From: Candidatus Margulisiibacteriota bacterium
GTDB lineage: Bacteria > Margulisbacteria > WOR-1 > O2-12-FULL-45-9 > XYB2-FULL-48-7
NCBI GenBank assembly: GCA_018822365.1
Contig: JAHJKL010000061.1
Coordinates: forward strand, 13,242 to 77,241
Direction of reading: 5' to 3'
Length of the DNA stretch: 64,000 bases
In this document: piece after piece, positions 413-9,361 of the stretch
How positions within the stretch are numbered: the stretch's first letter is position 1
How the letters are laid out: each line of letters starts with the position of its first letter
The notes under the pieces: generated by a model
What the model saw: only the letters and a program-made list of their open reading frames with translations
Told to the model about the DNA's origin: nothing
Database searches by the model: none
Translations under genes and position numbers: made by a program

Positions 413-657
413 TTGTTGAACTGGCCGCTGTTGAGCCCCAGCAGTCCGCCCAGGTCTTCGACCAGGACGATCGGGTGAGGGTCGGAAAGATTGGCTGCCG
501 CGGTGAATGGGAAGATCGAAAAGAGGGTGATCTTCCTGGTTTTCGCGTGGACGATCTTTTGGAAATAATTGAATGAACTGGTTTTTTCCAGGACCTCGAT
601 AACTTTTTGATTGTTCATAGTATTCATGGCTTTTCCCCTAAAAATAGCACTTGTCAC
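409..657 (-). CDS. hypothetical protein (possible C-terminal half of a frameshifted gene)
   Basis: An 82-aa ORF directly downstream of, and overlapping, the 638-829 ORF. No recognisable motif. Confidence 0.25.
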   Translation of the reverse strand: MTSAIFRGKAMNTMNNQKVIEVLEKTSSFNYFQKIVHAKTRKITLFSIFPFTAAANLSDPHPIVLVEDLGGLLGLNSGQFNN

Positions 658-829
658 TGATCGTGACAGTTTTGAGCTTGTTGGCTAGAATATCAAGAAA
701 AGGGGCGATAGGGAGCTGGTCTTTGCCGATAATAGTAGCGTCTTGAACGTAAGAGGCCCGTTTGGCTTTGTTAGGCCTGGTGATGAGGACAACATCGTAA
801 TTTTCTCTGCGGACATCTTCGTTGTTCAT
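638..829 (-). CDS. hypothetical protein (possible N-terminal half of a frameshifted gene)
   Basis: A 63-aa ORF that overlaps the next minus-strand ORF by 20 nt in a different frame. No recognisable motif. Confidence 0.25.
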   Translation of the reverse strand: MNNEDVRRENYDVVLITRPNKAKRASYVQDATIIGKDQLPIAPFLDILANKLKTVTISDKCYF

Positions 830-877: not shown

Positions 878-2098
878 TCAGGTTATTTGTCCAAAGAGGT
901 CGTAAGCGGTTGCCTTGGTGATAAGGGCTTTGACCAGGCTGCCCAGGGAGAGGGGCTTAGCAGACCTAAGGTGAAATATACCGTCTATTTCCGGGGCGTC
1001 GCGCCGGGTTCGGCCGAGATAGTTCGCCCCCTTTTTACTTTCGACCATGACCTCAACCTTTTGGCCAACCAGAGCGCGGTTGTTCGTCAGGGAGATTTTA
1101 GCCTGGGCGGACATGGCCAGCTGGCGGCGTTTTTCTCTGACTGTTAGAGGGACCTGGCCGGGAAGCTTGGCGGCGGCGGTCCCAACCTCGCGGCAGTAGC
1201 CAAAAACCCCGAGTTTCTCAAAACGAGCGGTTTTTATAAAATCGAGAAGCTCATTGAAGTCGGCCTGGGTTTCGCCGGGGAAGCCGACGATCAGCGAGGT
1301 GCGTAAAACTACTCCCGGAATATTCTTCCTCAGTTTGGCAAGAAGATATTCAAGGTCGTTCCGGTCGTAGCGCCGGTTCATTTTCTTTAGAACGGCAGAA
1401 CTGGCGTGCTGGACCGGGATGTCCAGGTATTTGACGATCTTTTTTTCGGCCGAAATCGTTTGGATCAGTTCGTCGGTGATATGGCCGGGGTGGGTGTACA
1501 TGACGCGGAGCCAGCGGATCCCCTTGGTCCTGGCCGATTGTTTCAGGATGGAAGGAAAGTCGGGGTGGGCGGTCGTATCCTGGGCGACAAAAATAATTTC
1601 TTTTGTCCCCCTTTTGGCCAGACCGGCGACCTCTTCTAAAATGTCTTTTTCCGGGCGGAGGCGGAGCTTCCCCCGAATGGTCGGGATCAGGCAATATGAA
1701 CAGCGGTTGTCGCACCCTTCGGCAATTTTAACGTAGGCGAACCATTTGGGGGTTGCTTTGAGCCTGGGGGTAGAACAGCTAAAGAGCCCGATGCTCTCAA
1801 CTTCACCGTCGATCGCCGGGAGCTTTAGATCGCCCACCTTTTTCAGCCATTGGGGGAGACAGCCGGCAATGTAGAGTTTGCGGCAGTTCCCTTTTTTCTT
1901 CCAGGCGGCCATTTCCCGCAGGACCTTGAGCGCTTCTTTCCGGGCCGGTTTTAAAAAGGCGCAGGTATTGACGATGATAATGTCTGCTTTGGAAGGGTCG
2001 GTGGTCAGGTCGTCCCCCCCGGCGGCTACCGAACCCATCATCACCTCGGTGTCGGCCAGGTTTTTTGGGCAGCCTAAACTGACAAAATGATATTTCAT
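878..2098 (-). CDS. rimO: ribosomal protein S12 methylthiotransferase RimO (MiaB-family radical SAM)
   Basis: N-terminal methylthiotransferase domain (MKYHFVSLGCPKNLADTEVM), radical-SAM CxxxCxxC (CDNRCSYCLIP) and a C-terminal TRAM domain. Confidence 0.85.
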   Translation of the reverse strand: MKYHFVSLGCPKNLADTEVMMGSVAAGGDDLTTDPSKADIIIVNTCAFLKPARKEALKVLREMAAWKKKGNCRKLYIAGCLPQWLKKVGDLKLPAIDGEVESIGLFSCSTPRLKATPKWFAYVKIAEGCDNRCSYCLIPTIRGKLRLRPEKDILEEVAGLAKRGTKEIIFVAQDTTAHPDFPSILKQSARTKGIRWLRVMYTHPGHITDELIQTISAEKKIVKYLDIPVQHASSAVLKKMNRRYDRNDLEYLLAKLRKNIPGVVLRTSLIVGFPGETQADFNELLDFIKTARFEKLGVFGYCREVGTAAAKLPGQVPLTVREKRRQLAMSAQAKISLTNNRALVGQKVEVMVESKKGANYLGRTRRDAPEIDGIFHLRSAKPLSLGSLVKALITKATAYDLFGQIT

Positions 2099-2174
2099 CC
2101 ATATATTATAACACCCGCCTCACCCAGCCTTCGCATTGGCGGATGGTGAGTGAGGTGCTATAATTTCGATACTT

Positions 2175-3215
2175 ATGGAACAGCTCCTCAAGAGCCGCTA
2201 CACTATCGGGGAGAAGATCTCCGAGAATAATTTTAGCGTCACCTATCGAGGGACCTATGTCGGGACCGACAAACCGCTGATCGTTAAGATCTACAAACGC
2301 GGCACCTTGAACTCCTCGCTGATCAAGGGGATGAAGTTTAGCGTAAAAGATTTTTCCCTTATCTCCCATTCTTCGGTCGCTAAAATGATCGATGGCGATT
2401 ACGGCTGGCAGGGGTTCTACTACATTCGCGAATATATTAACGGCAAAAGCCTGCGGCAGGTCTTAGCCGACGGTAAAATGGAAACGGAGCAGGCGCTGAT
2501 GATCGCCCAGCAGGTCCTGGCCGCTCTGGAAGCGACTGAAGCCAAGGGGGTTTTGCATGGCGCGTTAACCCCGGAAAATATTATCATTAACGACAAGGGA
2601 GAAGCTAAGATCACCGATTTTGTGATCAAGGGAGAGGTCAAAGAGGCCTTGCCGCAGAAGATCCAGGAGTTGTTGGTCGGCCTCCCCTACGCTTCACCGG
2701 AAAGCCTTGAGGGAGCCCCCCTGACGCCGGCCTCCGACCTTTATTCTTTCGGGATGATCTTTTTTGAAATGCTGGCAGGGCGACCGCTGATAAAGAACGG
2801 CGGAATCGCGGCCCATTTGCAGAAAATGAAAAGAGCGTCGCTGGTTAACAGGCCGGAACTGGCCTTTTTACCCGGCTATCTTGCCGATATTTTATTCAAA
2901 CTGCTGCAACGCGACCCGATCCTCCGGTTTCAATCAGCGGCGGTAGTTCGTGAGAGCCTGGCTTCCCAGTCCCTTCCTCTTCCGCCAAAGATCGGCGATG
3001 AATATCTAAAATTGTTTGAGGGGGTTGTGACCCAATATGGAGGAGAGGATCCGTCCCAGTCGCAACCGGCAAAACCTTCCGGCGAGACCAAGGAACAAGG
3101 AGAGCCGGCTTTGATGATCCCGGATAAAAAAGAAAGCCGGAGCTGGCTTTTTGCCATAATAATATTTATGAGCGTTGCGATCGGCGTGGTTTACGCCTTT
3201 TATTTGGGGAAATAA
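2175..3215 (+). CDS. PknB/PrkC-like Ser/Thr protein kinase homolog with degenerate catalytic motifs (predicted pseudokinase), C-terminal TM helix
   Basis: Kinase fold with the VAIK-type lysine retained (LIVKIYK). HRD is replaced by HGAL, DFG by DFV, and the Gly-loop is degenerate (SENNFS). The C-terminal hydrophobic helix is SWLFAIIIFMSVAIGVVYAF. An extended -10 box (TGcTATAAT) lies at 2155-2163. Confidence 0.75.
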   Translation: MEQLLKSRYTIGEKISENNFSVTYRGTYVGTDKPLIVKIYKRGTLNSSLIKGMKFSVKDFSLISHSSVAKMIDGDYGWQGFYYIREYINGKSLRQVLADGKMETEQALMIAQQVLAALEATEAKGVLHGALTPENIIINDKGEAKITDFVIKGEVKEALPQKIQELLVGLPYASPESLEGAPLTPASDLYSFGMIFFEMLAGRPLIKNGGIAAHLQKMKRASLVNRPELAFLPGYLADILFKLLQRDPILRFQSAAVVRESLASQSLPLPPKIGDEYLKLFEGVVTQYGGEDPSQSQPAKPSGETKEQGEPALMIPDKKESRSWLFAIIIFMSVAIGVVYAFYLGK

Positions 3216-3818
3216 ATGATCACAGGGTATTTAACCGCCTATTTGGTCTTTATCATAGTTGTTAGTGTGGTGATCAGCGTTCTTTTTCTTAGGTTAAAAC
3301 TGCCAGCGCCCAGGATTCTGATCCCATTGATCATATTTTTGATCTTATCTCCGGTTCTTGGCGGTTATTTGTATTTGACCTATTTTGATTCCATGCCGGA
3401 GATAGTCGTTCCCGACGTCACCGGTCTGACCAAGCAACAGGCGATCGTCAGGCTTGAAGAGGCCCAGCTCAAAGTTAATATTGCCGGAGAAGTAAAGCAG
3501 CCAAATGTTCCCGAAGGAGCGGTCGCTTCCCAGCGGCCGGAGGCGGGGCGTCGGGTTAAAGAGAACCGTGCCATTAGCCTGATGATCAGTTCCGGCAAGC
3601 AAAAAGTTCCGGTCCCTGATCTGGTCGGGAAAGAATTTAATCAAGCGACCAAAATGCTCGAGGCGGTTGGAATGGGTGCCGGGGATTTGAGCCATGAGAT
3701 CCATCTTGAACTGCCGGAAGGGGTTGTCCTGGCCCAGGAACCGCTTCCCGGCGAGATGTCAGCCATTGGAGAGAAGGTTGACCTGCTAATTTCAGTAGTA
3801 TCGGAGGAAATAAAATGA
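3216..3818 (+). CDS. membrane protein with two PASTA domains
   Basis: Two N-terminal TM helices followed by PASTA-like repeats (PDVTGLTKQQAIVRLEEAQLKV..., VPDLVGKEFNQATKMLEAVGM). The ATG follows the in-frame TAA stop of the kinase-like ORF immediately, in the same reading frame. Confidence 0.7.
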   Translation: MITGYLTAYLVFIIVVSVVISVLFLRLKLPAPRILIPLIIFLILSPVLGGYLYLTYFDSMPEIVVPDVTGLTKQQAIVRLEEAQLKVNIAGEVKQPNVPEGAVASQRPEAGRRVKENRAISLMISSGKQKVPVPDLVGKEFNQATKMLEAVGMGAGDLSHEIHLELPEGVVLAQEPLPGEMSAIGEKVDLLISVVSEEIK

Positions 3819-4465
3819 CGGTTAAAATCGCCCCTTCTATTTTGTCAGCCGATTTCCGGACGCTGGAGGCGGAGATCAAGAAAGTTGAAGCAGCCGGCGC
3901 CGACCTGATCCACATTGACGTAATGGATGGGCACTTTGTCCCAAATATCACGATCGGCCCGCTGGTGGTCAAAGCTTGCCGGAAGATCACGAAACTGCCG
4001 CTTGATGTCCATCTGATGATCGAGAATCCGGACCGTTTTATTCCTGACTTTGCTAAAGCGGGCGCGGATATTATTACGATCCATGTTGAAGCGGCAAAGA
4101 GCCTGGATAGCGATATCGAGCTGATCAGGCAGAACAATGCCAAACCAGGGGTGGTGGTTAATCCGGCATCCCCGGTGGAGTCGATCTTTCACGTGCTCGA
4201 CAAAGTGGTCATGGTTCTTTTAATGTCGGTCAATCCCGGTTTTGAAGGGCAAAAATTTATGCCAGAAGTCTTGCCTAAGATCAAAGCGCTTAAGTCGGAA
4301 ATTGTTGATCGTCAGTTGTCGGTTGATATTGAAGTCGATGGCGGTATTAATCCAGAGACCGCCAAAGAGGTGGTTAAAGCCGGGGCCAATGTTTTAGTCG
4401 CCGGTTCGGCGATCTTTTACGCCGCCGATCCTAAGCAGGCAATATGTGGACTGAAGACGATATAA
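3815..4465 (+). CDS. rpe: ribulose-phosphate 3-epimerase
   Basis: Full-length match to the Rpe family (HIDVMDGHFVPN, metal-binding His/Asp). Same prkC-rpe gene order as in Firmicutes. Confidence 0.9.
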   Translation: MTVKIAPSILSADFRTLEAEIKKVEAAGADLIHIDVMDGHFVPNITIGPLVVKACRKITKLPLDVHLMIENPDRFIPDFAKAGADIITIHVEAAKSLDSDIELIRQNNAKPGVVVNPASPVESIFHVLDKVVMVLLMSVNPGFEGQKFMPEVLPKIKALKSEIVDRQLSVDIEVDGGINPETAKEVVKAGANVLVAGSAIFYAADPKQAICGLKTI

Positions 4466-5535
4466 GGTTCATGCGCGAAGTGATTGACCTGGCCAAGTCG
4501 GCCGAAGGGCGAACCACCCCCGACCCAATGGTCGGTGCCGTTTTGGTCAAGGAAGGCCGGATCGTCTCCATGGGATATCACGGCGAAGTTGCCACCCCGC
4601 ACGCAGAAGCCTGGGCGATCGACAAAGCCGGCCTTGACGCTAAAGGAGCGACCCTCTACGTCAATCTTGAGCCCTGCTCCCATTTTGGCAACAATCCTCC
4701 CTGTGCCGACCGGATAATCAACGCAGGAATTAAAAAAGTATATATAGCGACGAAAGATCCCAATCCACTGGTCAATGGCCGCGGGATCAGGAAAATGATC
4801 AAGCACGGGATCAAAGTACAGGTTGGCCTGCTCGAAGACGAAGCAATAAAATTGAACGAGGTGTTTATTAAATATATTACCACCGGGCTTCCCTTTGTGG
4901 TGATGAAGACCGCTATAACCCTGGACGGAAAGATCGCTACCCGGACCGGCGCGAGCCGCTGGGTCGCAGGCCCTGCCTCTCTTCGCTACGCTCACCATCT
5001 CCGCAATCTTTACGACGCGATCCTGGTTGGGGTTGGAACGGTTTTGATCGACAACCCCAAACTTAATGTCCGACGGGTAAAAAAAGTTAAGGACCCGATC
5101 CGCATCGTGCTTGATACGATGGCCAGGACACCGCTTAAGGCCGATATCCTTTTCAAAGGCCAGCGGACGATCATTGCGGTTGGGCCAAAAGCCCCAGCTG
5201 CCAGGGTTAACGCTCTTCAGAAAAAAGGGGCGGAGATCATCAGCCTGCCGGTCAGCGGCGGGCATATTAGTGTTAAGGCGCTAGTGAAGAAACTTGGCGA
5301 AATGAAGATGACCAGTCTCCTGATCGAAGGAGGAGGGGAGGTTTATGCCTCGTTCCTGGAAGCCGGACTGGTTGATAAGGCCTTCTTTTTTATCGTTCCC
5401 AAGATCTTTGGCGGCCGCGACGCTAAAACGTCGGTCGAAGGGAAAGGGGTTTCCCTCCCCGCGCAAGCCAAATGGCTGAAGAATGTTCATGTGGAGAGGG
5501 TGGAAGAGGATATATTGGTTAGTGGGTATTTTTAG
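4444..5535 (+). CDS. ribD: bifunctional riboflavin biosynthesis deaminase/reductase RibD
   Basis: CMP/dCMP-type deaminase zinc motif (HAE...EPCSHFGNNPPC) followed by a RibD reductase domain. Confidence 0.85.
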   Translation: MWTEDDIRFMREVIDLAKSAEGRTTPDPMVGAVLVKEGRIVSMGYHGEVATPHAEAWAIDKAGLDAKGATLYVNLEPCSHFGNNPPCADRIINAGIKKVYIATKDPNPLVNGRGIRKMIKHGIKVQVGLLEDEAIKLNEVFIKYITTGLPFVVMKTAITLDGKIATRTGASRWVAGPASLRYAHHLRNLYDAILVGVGTVLIDNPKLNVRRVKKVKDPIRIVLDTMARTPLKADILFKGQRTIIAVGPKAPAARVNALQKKGAEIISLPVSGGHISVKALVKKLGEMKMTSLLIEGGGEVYASFLEAGLVDKAFFFIVPKIFGGRDAKTSVEGKGVSLPAQAKWLKNVHVERVEEDILVSGYF

Positions 5536-5595
5536 TCGACCGATATTTGGCTTCATGTGTTGCCCATCCCTTACAAGTCAAAAACAATAAATGCC

Positions 5596-5625
5596 TTGAC
5601 AGGTAGTTGTAGCAACATGTATAAT
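5596..5625 (+). promoter_or_regulatory. sigma70-type promoter of the vapBC operon
   Basis: Consensus TTGACA (5596-5601), an 18-nt spacer, then TATAAT (5620-5625). The spacer holds a GTTG-N3-CAAC inverted repeat (5606-5616), a possible autoregulatory operator. Confidence 0.55.
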
Positions 5626-5658
5626 CGTTTTAAGGTTTACCAGGGGGGAGGAAAAGCA

Positions 5659-5895
5659 ATGACGATAGAGACAACGGTCTCCAAAAGAGGGCAGACGGCT
5701 GTTCCGGCGGAAATATGTAAAAAGTATAATATTAAGGCGGGGCAGAAAATCGCCTGGTTGGATTTAGGCAGTATGGTCACAATTTTGCCCTTGCCGGAAA
5801 ACCCGATCAAGGCTTTTCGCGGAAGTTCAAAAGGGATGTTAAAGACCTTAATGGAAGAAAGAAAGAAGGAACGGGAAAGGGAACGTGGAAAATAA
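5659..5895 (+). CDS. vapB: AbrB/MazE-family antitoxin (VapB-like)
   Basis: SpoVT/AbrB-type swapped-hairpin N-terminus (MTIETTVSKRGQTAVPAEICKKYNIKAGQKIAW). A G-rich RBS precedes the start. It overlaps the downstream PIN gene. Confidence 0.6.
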   Translation: MTIETTVSKRGQTAVPAEICKKYNIKAGQKIAWLDLGSMVTILPLPENPIKAFRGSSKGMLKTLMEERKKERERERGK

Positions 5896-6295
5896 CTATG
5901 TTTTGGACACCTCGGCTATTTTTTGTTTGAAGGATGACGCCCCTGGTGCGGAAAAAGTTGAAGCCATCCTCTCGACCGCCCATCGCCGACGGCAGAAGGT
6001 TATTATTTCTTTTATGACGGCGATGGAATATCTTTATATCAATTTAATGCGACATGGGGAGGAAGCGGGCCATAAAGCTTATCTTGAATTAACGCTGTTG
6101 CCGATAGAAATTGTTGAAAGTGACGAGGATTTGCGATTAATCGCGGCCGAGCTAAAAGCGGCGCATAATATCTCTTTAGCGGACTCTTGGATAGCGGCAA
6201 CGGCCAAAAAGCATAACGCGACTTTGGTCCATCGGGACCCAGAGTTTGAGCCGCTAAAAAAGAGCCTTGATTCTTTGATTTTGCCTTATAAATAG
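5885..6295 (+). CDS. vapC: PIN-domain ribonuclease toxin (VapC-like)
   Basis: N-terminal PIN motif (VLDTSAIF) with conserved acidic residues. GTG start overlapping vapB by 11 nt. Confidence 0.7.
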   Translation: MENNYVLDTSAIFCLKDDAPGAEKVEAILSTAHRRRQKVIISFMTAMEYLYINLMRHGEEAGHKAYLELTLLPIEIVESDEDLRLIAAELKAAHNISLADSWIAATAKKHNATLVHRDPEFEPLKKSLDSLILPYK

Positions 6296-7050: not shown

Positions 7051-8322
7051 ATGTGTTACGCTATCCCCGGGAAGGTCACAGAGATTAATGGAAAAACGGT
7101 CACCGTTGACTACTTTGGCGAGAAAAAAACCGCTATCAACGAGCTTTCAAAAATTAAAATTGGCGACTATGTTTTTGCCCAGGGTGGTTTTGTTATTTCC
7201 CCTGTTGCGGAAAAAGAAGCGCTTGAAACGCTAGAAGCCTGGCAAGAACTTTTTTTTGCCTTGAAAGAGACCGATATGCGAATGTCTCGCCTGACAAGAG
7301 GGGCCATAGGGGTTGATAAAAAGTTTAGCGCCATTCTCGATAAAGCGGCCGAAGGGAGAGAACTGAAACGCGAAGAACTATTGACCCTCCTTAAAACTGA
7401 AGATCCGGCCGAACAAGAGCTTCTATATAAGACCGCCAACTTCCTCCGCCAAAAATACTTGTCCAACTCGTGTTGTGTTCACGGGATAATCGAATTCTCC
7501 AGTTACTGCCAAAACGATTGCGCCTATTGCGGGATCCGCCGGAGCAATACGATGCTGAAACGCTACCGGATGAGCGACGACGATATTTTAAGGGCGGCAG
7601 GCGAAGCGATCGAAAAGTATGGCTTTAAGGCGCTGGTCCTCCAAGCGGGTGAGGACCCTGAATATACGATTGAGCGCCTGGTCGCGCTGATCAAAGAGAT
7701 AAAGCGGCGCCATGCCGTCCTGATCTTTATCTCGGTTGGCGAGGTCGGCAAAGAAGGGCTAGCCGCATTGTACGAAGCGGGAGCGCGAGGCTTGTTGATG
7801 AGATTTGAAACCAGCAACCCCCAGCTTTACGAGAACCTCCACCCAGGAGACAAACTGCAGGACCGGATCGATGCACTAAAACATGCTTATGAAATTGGTT
7901 ATCTTATCTTGACCGGCGGGTTGATCGGTCTGCCGGCCCAAACCGATGAAGACCTGCTAAACGATATATTGCTTACTAAGGAGCTCCATGCTGAAATGTT
8001 CTCCTTTGGACCGGTCCTGCCGGAAGGGCCAAAGACCAGCCTGGTGCTTAAAACCTTGGCGGTGGCGAGGATCGTTGATCCGGTCAACGCCAAGATCCTG
8101 GTTACGACCGGCTTTGAAACGCTCGACCAAGAGGCGCGGCGTTTTGGTTTGTTGGCGGGATGTAATTCGGTTATGTTGAACGTTACTCCGATGAAATATC
8201 GGAAACTCTACAGCATTTATCCCGATCGGGCGCATGTTGAGGAAGAGATTGGCGCGCAGATCAAAGAAACCTTGGACCTTTTGCAATCACTAGGTCGGGC
8301 GCCGACTGATTTGGGGATTTAA
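7051..8322 (+). CDS. HypC/HupF-like domain fused to [FeFe]-hydrogenase maturase HydE-like radical SAM enzyme
   Basis: The N-terminal 75 aa match HypC (MCYAIPGKV...VDYFG...GDYVFAQGGFVIS..EKEALETLEAWQEL). The remainder carries HydE signatures (IIEFSSYCQNDCAYCGIRRSN, LKRYRM, VLQAGEDP, LMRFETSNP, LIGLPAQTDEDL, NVTPMKYRKLYSIYP, LGRAP). Confidence 0.8.
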   Translation: MCYAIPGKVTEINGKTVTVDYFGEKKTAINELSKIKIGDYVFAQGGFVISPVAEKEALETLEAWQELFFALKETDMRMSRLTRGAIGVDKKFSAILDKAAEGRELKREELLTLLKTEDPAEQELLYKTANFLRQKYLSNSCCVHGIIEFSSYCQNDCAYCGIRRSNTMLKRYRMSDDDILRAAGEAIEKYGFKALVLQAGEDPEYTIERLVALIKEIKRRHAVLIFISVGEVGKEGLAALYEAGARGLLMRFETSNPQLYENLHPGDKLQDRIDALKHAYEIGYLILTGGLIGLPAQTDEDLLNDILLTKELHAEMFSFGPVLPEGPKTSLVLKTLAVARIVDPVNAKILVTTGFETLDQEARRFGLLAGCNSVMLNVTPMKYRKLYSIYPDRAHVEEEIGAQIKETLDLLQSLGRAPTDLGI

Positions 8323-8371: not shown

Positions 8372-9361
8372 TTGATAAATGGTATAATTTCCCTTGTGAG
8401 TAAGAAAAAACTACAGGCATATAATCAAATAGTTGACATCTCAAATTGGCCTATTGATGATGTTTATTCAGGCATGTATCCAAAAGGAGCAAGAGAGAAA
8501 ATTGCTTGTTTTTGCCCAAAAGAGGGGTACGAATTTTTAATTCTGAATAGAGACAGTAAATATAGACATAGATATTTATACAAACTATCTAGGTCAGCTT
8601 ATCCTTCACAGTTTTGGGCGGAAATTGTTGCGTATAGATTCGGTTGTCTTATCGGGGTGAAGGTTCCACCTGCTTTTGTTGCTATTAATGATAAGGATCA
8701 CAATTGTGGTGCATTAATAGAGTTTTTCTTTAAGGATTATCCTTATGGGGACGAACAATACTATGTTGATGGTGGAATGTTCATGAAAAAATTAATTCCT
8801 GATTACGATTTAAAAAAAGGAACACAGCATAATTTTGAAACAGTAGAACGACTTCGGGTGTTGTGTGATAATTGGTACGAAGAATGGGCAAAAATATTTA
8901 CTTTTGATGCATTAATTGGCAATACTGATCGGCATCAAGACAATTGGGGATTAATTGGAAAGCTTAGGGACGCAACTCACGGGAAATTTGTGCTTTCGCC
9001 TGCTTTTGATAATGGGACAAGCTTGGGGCATGAAATTAATGAAGAAAATTTGTATAAATTTAACACAAATAAGGTTAGTGATTACATTAATCGTGGCCCA
9101 AATCATATGAAATGGAAAATGACCGATGAAAAAAGACCTCTAATGTTTGATTTTATTCGGATGTTTTGCTTAAATAAACCAGAGCAAAGGGAATTAATGT
9201 TGAAATGCATCTCGTTTTCTATCGATAATGTTAGGGAACTAATATATGAGTTAACAAAGTTTGATGTAAAATGTAGGTTGTCGGAGAAACGCGCAGAGTT
9301 TATGGTACAATTAATTCAAGCAAGACAAGCAAAACTAAGGGAAATATTGGAAAACAAATGA
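8372..9361 (+). CDS. HipA-like (HipA_C family) Ser/Thr kinase, short form
   Basis: Conserved HipA C-terminal catalytic motif (ALIGNTDRHQDNWGLI) and a downstream PAFDNGTS motif. AT-rich gene with a TTG/GTG start. Its stop overlaps the next ATG (ATGA). Confidence 0.65.
   Translation: MINGIISLVSKKKLQAYNQIVDISNWPIDDVYSGMYPKGAREKIACFCPKEGYEFLILNRDSKYRHRYLYKLSRSAYPSQFWAEIVAYRFGCLIGVKVPPAFVAINDKDHNCGALIEFFFKDYPYGDEQYYVDGGMFMKKLIPDYDLKKGTQHNFETVERLRVLCDNWYEEWAKIFTFDALIGNTDRHQDNWGLIGKLRDATHGKFVLSPAFDNGTSLGHEINEENLYKFNTNKVSDYINRGPNHMKWKMTDEKRPLMFDFIRMFCLNKPEQRELMLKCISFSIDNVRELIYELTKFDVKCRLSEKRAEFMVQLIQARQAKLREILENK

Follow-up and report, generated by a model that had tools for sequence, protein, structure and literature searches.

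A putative PASTA sensor and a predicted pseudokinase encoded by separate, always adjacent genes in Margulisiibacteriota

In Firmicutes and Actinobacteria, PASTA-domain Hanks kinases are central to how cells grow, divide, tolerate antibiotics and leave dormancy, and the shares of catalysis and scaffolding in their function are still debated. Here we describe a locus in a 64,000-nucleotide (nt) stretch of DNA from a Candidatus Margulisiibacteriota bacterium (assembly GCA_018822365.1, contig JAHJKL010000061.1; the whole stretch is hereafter called the window), in which a kinase-like gene, open reading frame 1 (ORF1), is followed directly by a gene for a PASTA-domain protein, ORF2. Both genes are intact, and throughout the family that they represent they are always adjacent and always separate; the first is predicted to encode a membrane-anchored pseudokinase and the second a sensor.

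The genes of the locus and the features within them are collected in Table 1. A first-pass annotation of the window had described ORF1 as a PknB/PrkC-like predicted pseudokinase ending in one transmembrane (TM) helix, parted by a single in-frame TAA from an ORF with two TM helices and two PASTA domains, with rpe downstream and rimO, rather than a PrpC phosphatase gene, upstream. ORF calls reproduce the boundaries of both genes, the stop codon and the ATG at the very next in-frame codon, and the rest of this description stood up equally well to hydropathy analysis and to searches against Pfam and NCBIfam models. Pfam scans, which covered most ORFs in the first ~55 kb of the window, found neither a PP2C phosphatase nor an FHA partner.

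Table 1. Genes and sequence features of the pseudokinase-PASTA locus (positions in the window; aa, amino acids)
Feature	Position	Strand	Basis or remark
ORF1, predicted pseudokinase gene, 346 aa	2175..3215	+	ORF call
ORF1 domains: kinase fold aa ~9-265; conserved post-kinase helix aa 275-288; linker; C-terminal TM helix			
Degenerate Gly-rich loop S15-E-N-N-F-S-V-T22	2217..2240	+	aligns on GFGGMSEV of PknB
Retained beta3 (VAIK) Lys K38	2286..2288	+	invariant in 22/22 and 52/52 members
Signature G74-DYGWQGFYY-83, beta4-beta5 of N-lobe	2394..2423	+	invariant across family
Catalytic-loop remnant H128-G-A-L-T-P-E-N135 for HRDxKxxN	2556..2579	+	no catalytic Asp
D148-F-V for DFG	2616..2624	+	alignment; metal-binding Asp kept
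Segment aligned to PknB T171/T173	2694..2702	+	2 residues shorter than PknB; conserved PQK
ORF1 C-terminal TM helix, aa 321-346	3135..3212	+	Kyte-Doolittle maximum 2.46; helix 320-345 in AlphaFold2 model
ORF1 stop codon TAA	3213..3215	+	abuts ORF2 ATG
ORF2, PASTA sensor gene, 200 aa	3216..3818	+	ATG is next codon, same frame as ORF1
ORF2 TM1, aa ~5-25	3228-3290	+	hydropathy
ORF2 basic loop RLKLPAPR, between TM1 and TM2		+	sequence
ORF2 TM2, aa ~34-57	3315-3386	+	hydropathy
PASTA-1, aa 64-125	3405-3590	+	Pfam
PASTA-2, about aa 129-196		+	Pfam
rpe (ribulose-phosphate 3-epimerase)	3815..4465	+	TIGR01163, 294 bits
ribD	4444..5535	+	TIGR00326, 332 bits; 22-nt overlap with rpe
rimO, upstream of ORF1	878..2098	-	TIGR01125, 391 bits vs cutoff 357
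Promoter-like site: TTGGCG, 17-nt spacer, TATAAT, TG before -10	2136..2164	+	consensus scan only
Two small ORFs, 82 and 63 aa	409-657 and 638-829	-	without Pfam or NCBIfam match

ORF1 matches the Pfam protein kinase family over aa 9-259 (Pkinase, PF00069; 1.3e-27, 97.3 bits against a cutoff of 31.7), and its best NCBIfam model is NF033483 (PknB_PASTA_kin), which it covers at model positions 2-354 with 135.6 bits, the cutoff of that model being 450. An AlphaFold2 model of the protein (predicted local distance difference test, pLDDT, 77.6; predicted template-modelling score, pTM, 0.70) has a normal bilobal kinase fold, with a low-confidence or disordered linker after the helix at aa 275-288. The nearest structures that Foldseek returned from the PDB for this model are PknA, PknB and Stk1, at target-normalised template-modelling scores of 0.80-0.81 and 22-24% identity.

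The motifs of ORF1 were placed by alignment to Staphylococcus aureus Stk1, PknA and PknB. This alignment bears out the lesions that had been read from the sequence at first pass, namely HGAL for HRD (H128-G-A-L, nt 2556-2567, aligned on HRDV/HRDI), DFV for DFG and a degenerate Gly-rich loop; K38 falls on the beta3 Lys and S174-P-E on APE, as had also been proposed. A further lesion, missing from the earlier account, is the loss of the alphaC Glu, replaced by Ser in ORF1 and by Lys in most relatives.

These changes are a property of the family, as seen in the 52 distinct loci described below. In all 52 members HRD is replaced by H-[GA]-x, with A, G, S, E, C or N standing where the Asp would be, a variation that might be expected where no catalytic role is left to that position. 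The Gly-loop position reads SENPFSVT in the family consensus and is non-glycine in 52/52 members, and no conserved Ser/Thr stands at the activation-loop positions of PknB T171/T173 in the family alignment. The catalytic-loop Lys is kept in most members (HGALKPxN) and is Thr in the window protein and its clade (HGALTPEN). At the DFG position most members have DF[VIL], DFG itself occurring only in the most divergent clade. Because all 52 members lack HRD and DFG survives only in that clade, the loss of the catalytic Asp predates the diversification of the family, with the change from DFG to DF[VIL] coming later. What is kept is equally uniform: the beta3 Lys, the His and Asn of the catalytic loop, the Asp of DFx and the SPE motif are present in 52/52 members, and the structural core of the C-lobe (SPE, the alphaF motif SD[IL]Y and the Arg of DPxxRF) is intact. 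A near-identical protein from a metagenome-assembled genome (MAG) (P0001, MFH1389194.1) differs from ORF1 solely by H128Y, at the otherwise invariant His of the HRD remnant. With a kinase fold and the family-wide loss of the HRD Asp, ORF1 is, on its sequence, a predicted pseudokinase.

The most conserved part of the protein is a set of non-canonical motifs in the N-lobe, which has 17 invariant positions out of 88; the C-lobe has 5 out of 88. The invariant positions group in LKS[RK]Y, K-IYKRGTLNS and GDYGWQGFYY-RE, the near-invariant YKRGTLNS coming after K38. At the other end of the protein, the TM helix has an invariant G337 and conserved W324 and Y340 in an alignment of 22 sequences, and ORF1 ends about 2 residues beyond it, which makes the helix a predicted tail anchor.

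ORF2 matches Pfam PASTA in two stretches (1.3e-25, 89.5 bits) and shares its best NCBIfam model with ORF1, aligning to NF033483 at model positions 337-500 with 103 bits (cutoff 450). The protein begins 4-5 residues before a TM hairpin that is kept in 52/52 PASTA partners. In each of them a short N-tail leads into TM1, a short basic loop joins TM1 to TM2, Pro and Tyr residues are conserved in TM2, and PE..VP opens the first PASTA repeat; the number of repeats, judged in the relatives from partner length, varies by clade and may be one (138-158 aa), two (~195-233 aa) or three (265-275 aa). Because the basic loop RLKLPAPR should face the cytoplasm according to the positive-inside rule, the N-terminus of ORF2 and its PASTA repeats are predicted to lie outside the cytoplasmic membrane. 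With ORF1 ending about 2 residues past the membrane on its outer side, the pair resembles a single chain of three TM helices that has been cut in a very short external loop. The helix of ORF1 and TM2 of ORF2 both align to the single TM helix of NF033483; since canonical PASTA kinases have only one such helix, ORF2 would have gained its extra helix at the time of the split or later.

One genome was scanned for each GTDB species, which gave 53 loci. In 52/52 distinct loci a separate PASTA ORF follows a kinase-like ORF of about 340 aa, at 29-86% identity, and nearly all of the loci come from Margulisiibacteriota, Saganbacteria or WOR-1 according to the taxon labels of the MAG depositors. A contig labelled 'Candidatus Falkowbacteria' (MFFY01000004.1, L023) and a WOR-1 contig (METP01000046.1, L024) agree at this locus in their ORF coordinates and hidden Markov model (HMM) scores; the label of the former is probably a matter of binning or labelling and not an occurrence outside the phylum, and one 'Omnitrophota' locus may reflect binning as well. 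The junction between the two genes differs from locus to locus. Their relative frame is 0, 1 or 2 in 16, 13 and 23 loci, respectively, the gap between them is mostly -4 to +14 nt within a range of -59 to +54 nt (the lowest two values hinge on an automatic start-codon call), and the kinase-like ORF stops at TAA in 36 loci, at TAG in 10 and at TGA in 6, with double stops at some junctions, such as TAA TAG ATG in one relative (L001). A 0-nt in-frame junction is found in the window and in seven other loci. Because the two genes share a frame in only 16 of 52 relatives, the in-frame abutment in the window is due to chance.

Protein searches give the same picture. Among the 388 homologues of ORF1, the best 120 are all 330-365 aa long (43-100% identity), and the named members among these are Margulisbacteria, Saganbacteria or WOR-1; among the 71 homologues of ORF2, every match of at least 41% identity is a protein of 163-264 aa with PASTA domains only. 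No fused kinase-PASTA form was found in protein searches, including a profile search of 1.84 billion cluster representatives. The top 150 of that search were dominated by multi-kinase-domain proteins with additive scores, and a DYGW[QE]G filter was applied; among the top matches, the motif occurs only in proteins of 326-354 aa and in two 198-aa fragments. Public databases label the members of the family 'serine/threonine protein kinase'. In the five pairs with unsaturated synonymous divergence (dS), the pseudokinase gene has a ratio of nonsynonymous to synonymous substitution (dN/dS) of 0.06-0.14 and the PASTA gene one of 0.07-0.21, values that indicate purifying selection on both. The annotation had also pointed to the possibility of an intact paralogue elsewhere; phmmer with the PknB kinase domain found no second Hanks kinase in any of the six frames of the 64-kb window, and no canonical Hanks kinase lies in the ~9-kb flanks of 57 related loci.

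Taken in isolation, the locus could pass for a normal prkC or pknB gene with a spurious or recent nonsense codon, that is, for an assembly or sequencing error or a pseudogene in decay, as the first-pass annotation had considered; the ORFs abut in frame, and together they span one PASTA-kinase model. We regard this as practically out of the question, given that the split recurs in every relative down to 29% identity with differing frames, gaps and stops, that dN/dS is low for both genes and that the same pair is adjacent in independent MAG assemblies (MBU0629442/41, MBU1617176/77 and MFH1389194/95), identical in several of them. No relative has HRD, none is fused, and a canonical HRD/DFG kinase occurs at the locus in none of the 52. 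Moreover, ORF2 has a conserved N-terminal TM helix and start codon of its own, which is more than a simple nonsense mutation makes. Programmed recoding, in which stop-codon readthrough or frameshifting would yield a single kinase-TM-TM-TM-PASTA polypeptide, could draw on the 0-nt in-frame junctions and on a three-TM fusion that is topologically consistent. As a conserved mechanism, readthrough is contradicted by the 36 of 52 loci in which the genes lie in different frames, and the use of all three stops, the spread of gaps and the tandem stops amount to a junction diversity that is incompatible with any conserved recoding signal; together with the conserved start and N-terminus of ORF2, this makes recoding of either kind very improbable. 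The comparison of stops among orthologues, which the annotation had called for, thus turned up no single stop codon or junction common to all loci, and its third option, a true two-component arrangement of a membrane pseudokinase and a separate PASTA sensor, is the one that agrees with the 52/52 loci, the purifying selection and the same lesions throughout.

The reading that we favour, at a probability of roughly 0.7, is that a PASTA-type Ser/Thr kinase gave rise to a two-subunit system, encoded at this locus and conserved across Margulisiibacteriota/Saganbacteria, which signals without phosphotransfer. An origin from a PASTA kinase is indicated because both halves match NF033483 best, at neighbouring model positions, and because the closest folds of ORF1 are PknA, PknB and Stk1. 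An ancestral kinase-TM-PASTA gene would have been split in two at an ancient date, and the catalytic lesions date back to the ancestor of the whole family. Subunit 1 (ORF1) would be a tail-anchored cytoplasmic pseudokinase that keeps the fold, the beta3 Lys, the His, the Asn, the DFx Asp and the APE/alphaF/alphaH-I core, and lacks the catalytic Asp, the Gly-rich loop, the alphaC Glu and the phospho-acceptor sites of the activation loop. Subunit 2 (ORF2) would be a two-TM hairpin that carries one to three PASTA repeats, two in the window, outside the cytoplasmic membrane. Translational coupling of the two genes would bring the tail-anchored helix and the helical hairpin to the membrane together, where the three TM helices may form one heteromeric complex. 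The PASTA repeats may bind peptidoglycan-derived ligands, as in PknB/PrkC/StkP, and a ligand-dependent oligomerisation, clustering or conformational change would then be read out by the pseudokinase with no phosphotransfer. It is known that the N-lobe of PknB forms a back-to-back regulatory dimer; in the present family, the conserved N-lobe surface might dimerise or recruit a cytoplasmic partner. Because the Lys, Asn and Asp are retained, a nucleotide with Mg could serve as a structural ligand or switch.

Several points weigh against this reading. The retained Lys, Asn and Asp leave room for residual or non-canonical catalysis. The physical complex of ORF1 and ORF2 and its signalling output are postulated: a single-sequence AlphaFold2 model of the concatenated proteins was uninformative (pLDDT 37.7, pTM 0.23), and a set of 52 ORF1-ORF2 pairs is too small for an analysis of covariation. 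Upstream of ORF2, Shine-Dalgarno-like sequences show only moderate enrichment (58% vs 24% in controls), and the window junction, GGGGAAATAAATG, has no Shine-Dalgarno score. Finally, PASTA proteins that stand alone, with no kinase neighbour, exist in other taxa, at two loci (L059 and L060), so that a kinase-like partner is not strictly needed.

These stand-alone proteins, encoded at L059 5001-5768 (255 aa) and L060 5001-5855 (284 aa), are about 30% identical to ORF2, and no kinase gene lies nearby. Both genes adjoin rsmB, which in L059 is followed by fmt and def. As an rsmB-fmt-def block lies upstream of prpC-prkC in Firmicutes, this setting hints, by analogy, at the loss of a kinase gene at L059 and L060.

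Two further explanations bear on these points. ORF1 may be an atypical active kinase or a nucleotide-transferring enzyme, with ORF2 as its separate sensor. The invariant beta3 Lys, loop His and Asn and DFx Asp, the loop Lys of most members and the strong purifying selection would all suit an enzyme, and there is a precedent in SelO and SidJ, 'pseudokinases' that were found to catalyse other reactions (PMC12599244). An enzyme would hardly be expected, in turn, to leave the catalytic-Asp position unconstrained, to replace its Gly loop by a conserved ENPFS loop, to exchange the alphaC Glu for Lys or Ser and to keep no conserved activation-loop Ser/Thr, and the window clade lacks the loop Lys too; we consider this explanation quite unlikely. 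Alternatively, the two genes may be co-transcribed neighbours with independent functions, the PASTA protein acting alone and the pseudokinase in an unrelated membrane role. Only the stand-alone PASTA proteins speak for such independence. It has to be set against an adjacency that is unbroken in 52/52 loci across deep divergence, with stops and starts abutting or overlapping, while the upstream genes vary (rimO in the window, a hydrolase gene in L003), against the derivation of both halves from one PASTA-kinase architecture, and against the conserved TM residues of each subunit (G337, W324 and Y340 in ORF1; Tyr and Pro in the ORF2 hairpin). On balance, independent functions seem unlikely.

We compared the module with the PASTA Hanks kinases PknB, PrkC, StkP, Stk1/PknB-Sa, IreK and PrkA, with the model NF033483 and with the 'KAPD' family (bioRxiv 10.1101/2025.01.12.632604). 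The module resembles them in the fold of ORF1, in the adjacent positions at which its two ORFs match NF033483, and in its predicted layout of a cytoplasmic kinase-like domain, a membrane passage and extracytoplasmic PASTA repeats. Unlike them, it consists of two polypeptides with three TM helices in total, where a PASTA kinase is one polypeptide with one TM helix; it lacks the catalytic Asp, Gly loop, alphaC Glu and activation-loop Thr sites; no PP2C phosphatase gene adjoins it; and its scores of 135.6 and 103 bits are far below the 450-bit equivalog cutoff. Its host phylum belongs to the Cyanobacteriota/Melainabacteria group and not to Firmicutes or Actinobacteria. In catalytic triad, single polypeptide and curated score, the features that define the PASTA-kinase family, the module falls outside that family.

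Among bacterial pseudokinases, CD2148 of Clostridioides difficile is a PASTA-less, membrane-anchored, PknB-like putative pseudokinase that shows no autophosphorylation, lacks the loop Asp, the loop Asn and the SPE motif, modulates PrkC-dependent phosphorylation and has been linked, along with a PASTA protein, to the control of division and of the cell envelope (PMC9674922). ORF1 shares with it the kinase-like domain, the TM anchor, the lack of PASTA domains and the loss of catalytic-loop residues. It differs in keeping the Asn and SPE and in the position of its gene next to a PASTA gene, which the CD2148 gene does not have; furthermore, the PASTA partner of ORF1 has no kinase domain, whereas CD2148 works beside a full, active PASTA kinase. 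The pseudokinase domain of mycobacterial MviN/MurJ (ActPs3, PDB 3UQC) is membrane-linked, takes part in peptidoglycan homeostasis and acts as a scaffold that recruits FhaA; it has lost all three catalytic-triad residues and about 40 residues of the activation loop, is fused to a flippase and does not bind ATP (PMC12599244). By analogy, ORF1 may likewise be a membrane-linked bacterial pseudokinase tied to peptidoglycan homeostasis; in contrast to ActPs3, the members of its family retain the Lys and the DFx Asp, are only 2 residues short in the activation segment and occur as stand-alone proteins. EssB/YukC, the membrane pseudokinase of the type VIIb secretion system (PDB 6Z0F), serves as a scaffold through dimerisation and has an extracellular domain of its own (PMC9600267). 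In ORF1 too, the cytoplasmic pseudokinase is N-terminal and one TM helix follows it, yet the protein ends 2 residues after that helix and its best folds are PknA, PknB and Stk1; no type VII secretion genes were found near ORF1 or its relatives in gene tables and in the Pfam scans, which covered most ORFs in the first ~55 kb of the window.

Seven bacterial pseudokinase families have been described, ActPs1, ActPs2, ActPs3, GLW, CP1, DYD and DLHK; each has at least some members in which the VAIK-Lys is replaced, none is linked to PASTA domains, and their hallmarks include GLW replacing HRD, large indels and fusions to COG3899 or helicase domains (PMC12599244; bioRxiv 10.1101/2025.01.12.632604). 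Like several of them, the ORF1 family derives from Hanks kinases, is conserved within a restricted lineage and has a C-terminal TM region. It is distinguished by the invariant K38, by the hallmarks HG[AG] and GDYGWQGFYY and by its PASTA partner, and it has no GLW motif, large indel or fused domain; set apart from the seven by their published descriptions only, it matches none of them. In the literature searched, on split PASTA kinases, PASTA-linked pseudokinases and Margulisbacteria kinases, the ORF1 family is not described. The ORF1 family is a previously undescribed family of bacterial pseudokinases, and together with its PASTA partners it makes up a split sensor that extends across the phylum.

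The family adds one entry to the short list of bacterial pseudokinases, and it provides a conserved natural case in which a sensor and a presumably dead 'kinase' are separate, with strong purifying selection acting on both. It makes testable how PASTA ectodomains inform a kinase-fold domain across the membrane without a covalent link, what role the N-lobe of the Hanks fold takes on once catalysis is gone, and how the cell wall is sensed in an uncultured sister phylum of Cyanobacteria. A bolder proposal, which we advance only tentatively and judge rather doubtful as it stands, is that a lineage of phylum rank runs PASTA cell-wall sensing wholly without phosphotransfer: an obligate heteromeric receptor would work through conformational or oligomeric switching of a dead, possibly nucleotide-binding kinase domain, with the N-lobe motifs YKRGTLNS and GDYGWQGFYY as a new effector-binding surface. 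If phosphotransfer-free sensing were true, the family would be a natural experiment in which what PASTA kinases do as scaffolds is parted from what they do as enzymes.

As to the genes around the module, the start of rpe overlaps the stop of ORF2 by 4 nt (ATGA). Because of the stop/start overlaps, the lack of a convincing terminator and the promoter-like site ahead of ORF1, the pseudokinase gene, the PASTA gene, rpe and ribD would form one operon, with ribD probably the last gene of the transcription unit. Within the last part of ORF1, at 3183-3197, a hairpin resembles a terminator; it was dismissed, as sites of this kind occur at chance level in the region (4 found vs 5.0 expected). Promoter-like sites were found 6 times in the consensus scan against 3.2 expected, and the call at 2136-2164 is suggestive of a promoter without being proof of one. 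No Shine-Dalgarno sequence is visible upstream of the ORF1 ATG. As the -10 box of the promoter-like site ends 10 nt before this ATG, the mRNA of the module may be leaderless or near-leaderless, or may have a very short leader.

In Firmicutes, rpe lies downstream of prkC, and the remark in the first-pass annotation that the window matches this synteny holds in the relatives as well, in that rpe follows the PASTA gene wherever gene tables were examined. The order kinase-like gene, PASTA gene, rpe is seen in the gene tables of three distant relatives (44-50% identity), and ribD is usually next (L003 and L005), with an 872-aa gene intervening in L001. The neighbours named in the gene tables of relatives are nadK, the PASTA gene, rpe and ribD. 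The upstream side of the module is variable, with rimO in the window and a hydrolase gene or nothing in L001, L003 and L004; in the window, rimO sits between a conserved block of nadK and small ORFs and the pseudokinase gene. The two small ORFs of this block are conserved in 37 and 21 of about 57 related loci, on the opposite strand between nadK and the module. They were left out as module members, since variable genes separate them from the module and they have no family match.

Beyond the operon, an antitoxin-like small ORF overlaps a PIN-domain (VapC-like) ORF right after ribD (5557-6295, +), and a perfect sigma-70 consensus (TTGACA, 18-nt spacer, TATAAT) stands at 5596-5625. A HipA_C-like ORF follows at 8372-9361. 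In addition, a single 423-aa ORF (7051-8322, +) holds both a HupF/HypC domain (aa 1-64, 7.5e-16) and a radical-SAM domain (aa 147-304, 5.8e-19), a hydrogenase-maturation chaperone joined to a radical-SAM enzyme in what looks like an unusual fusion.

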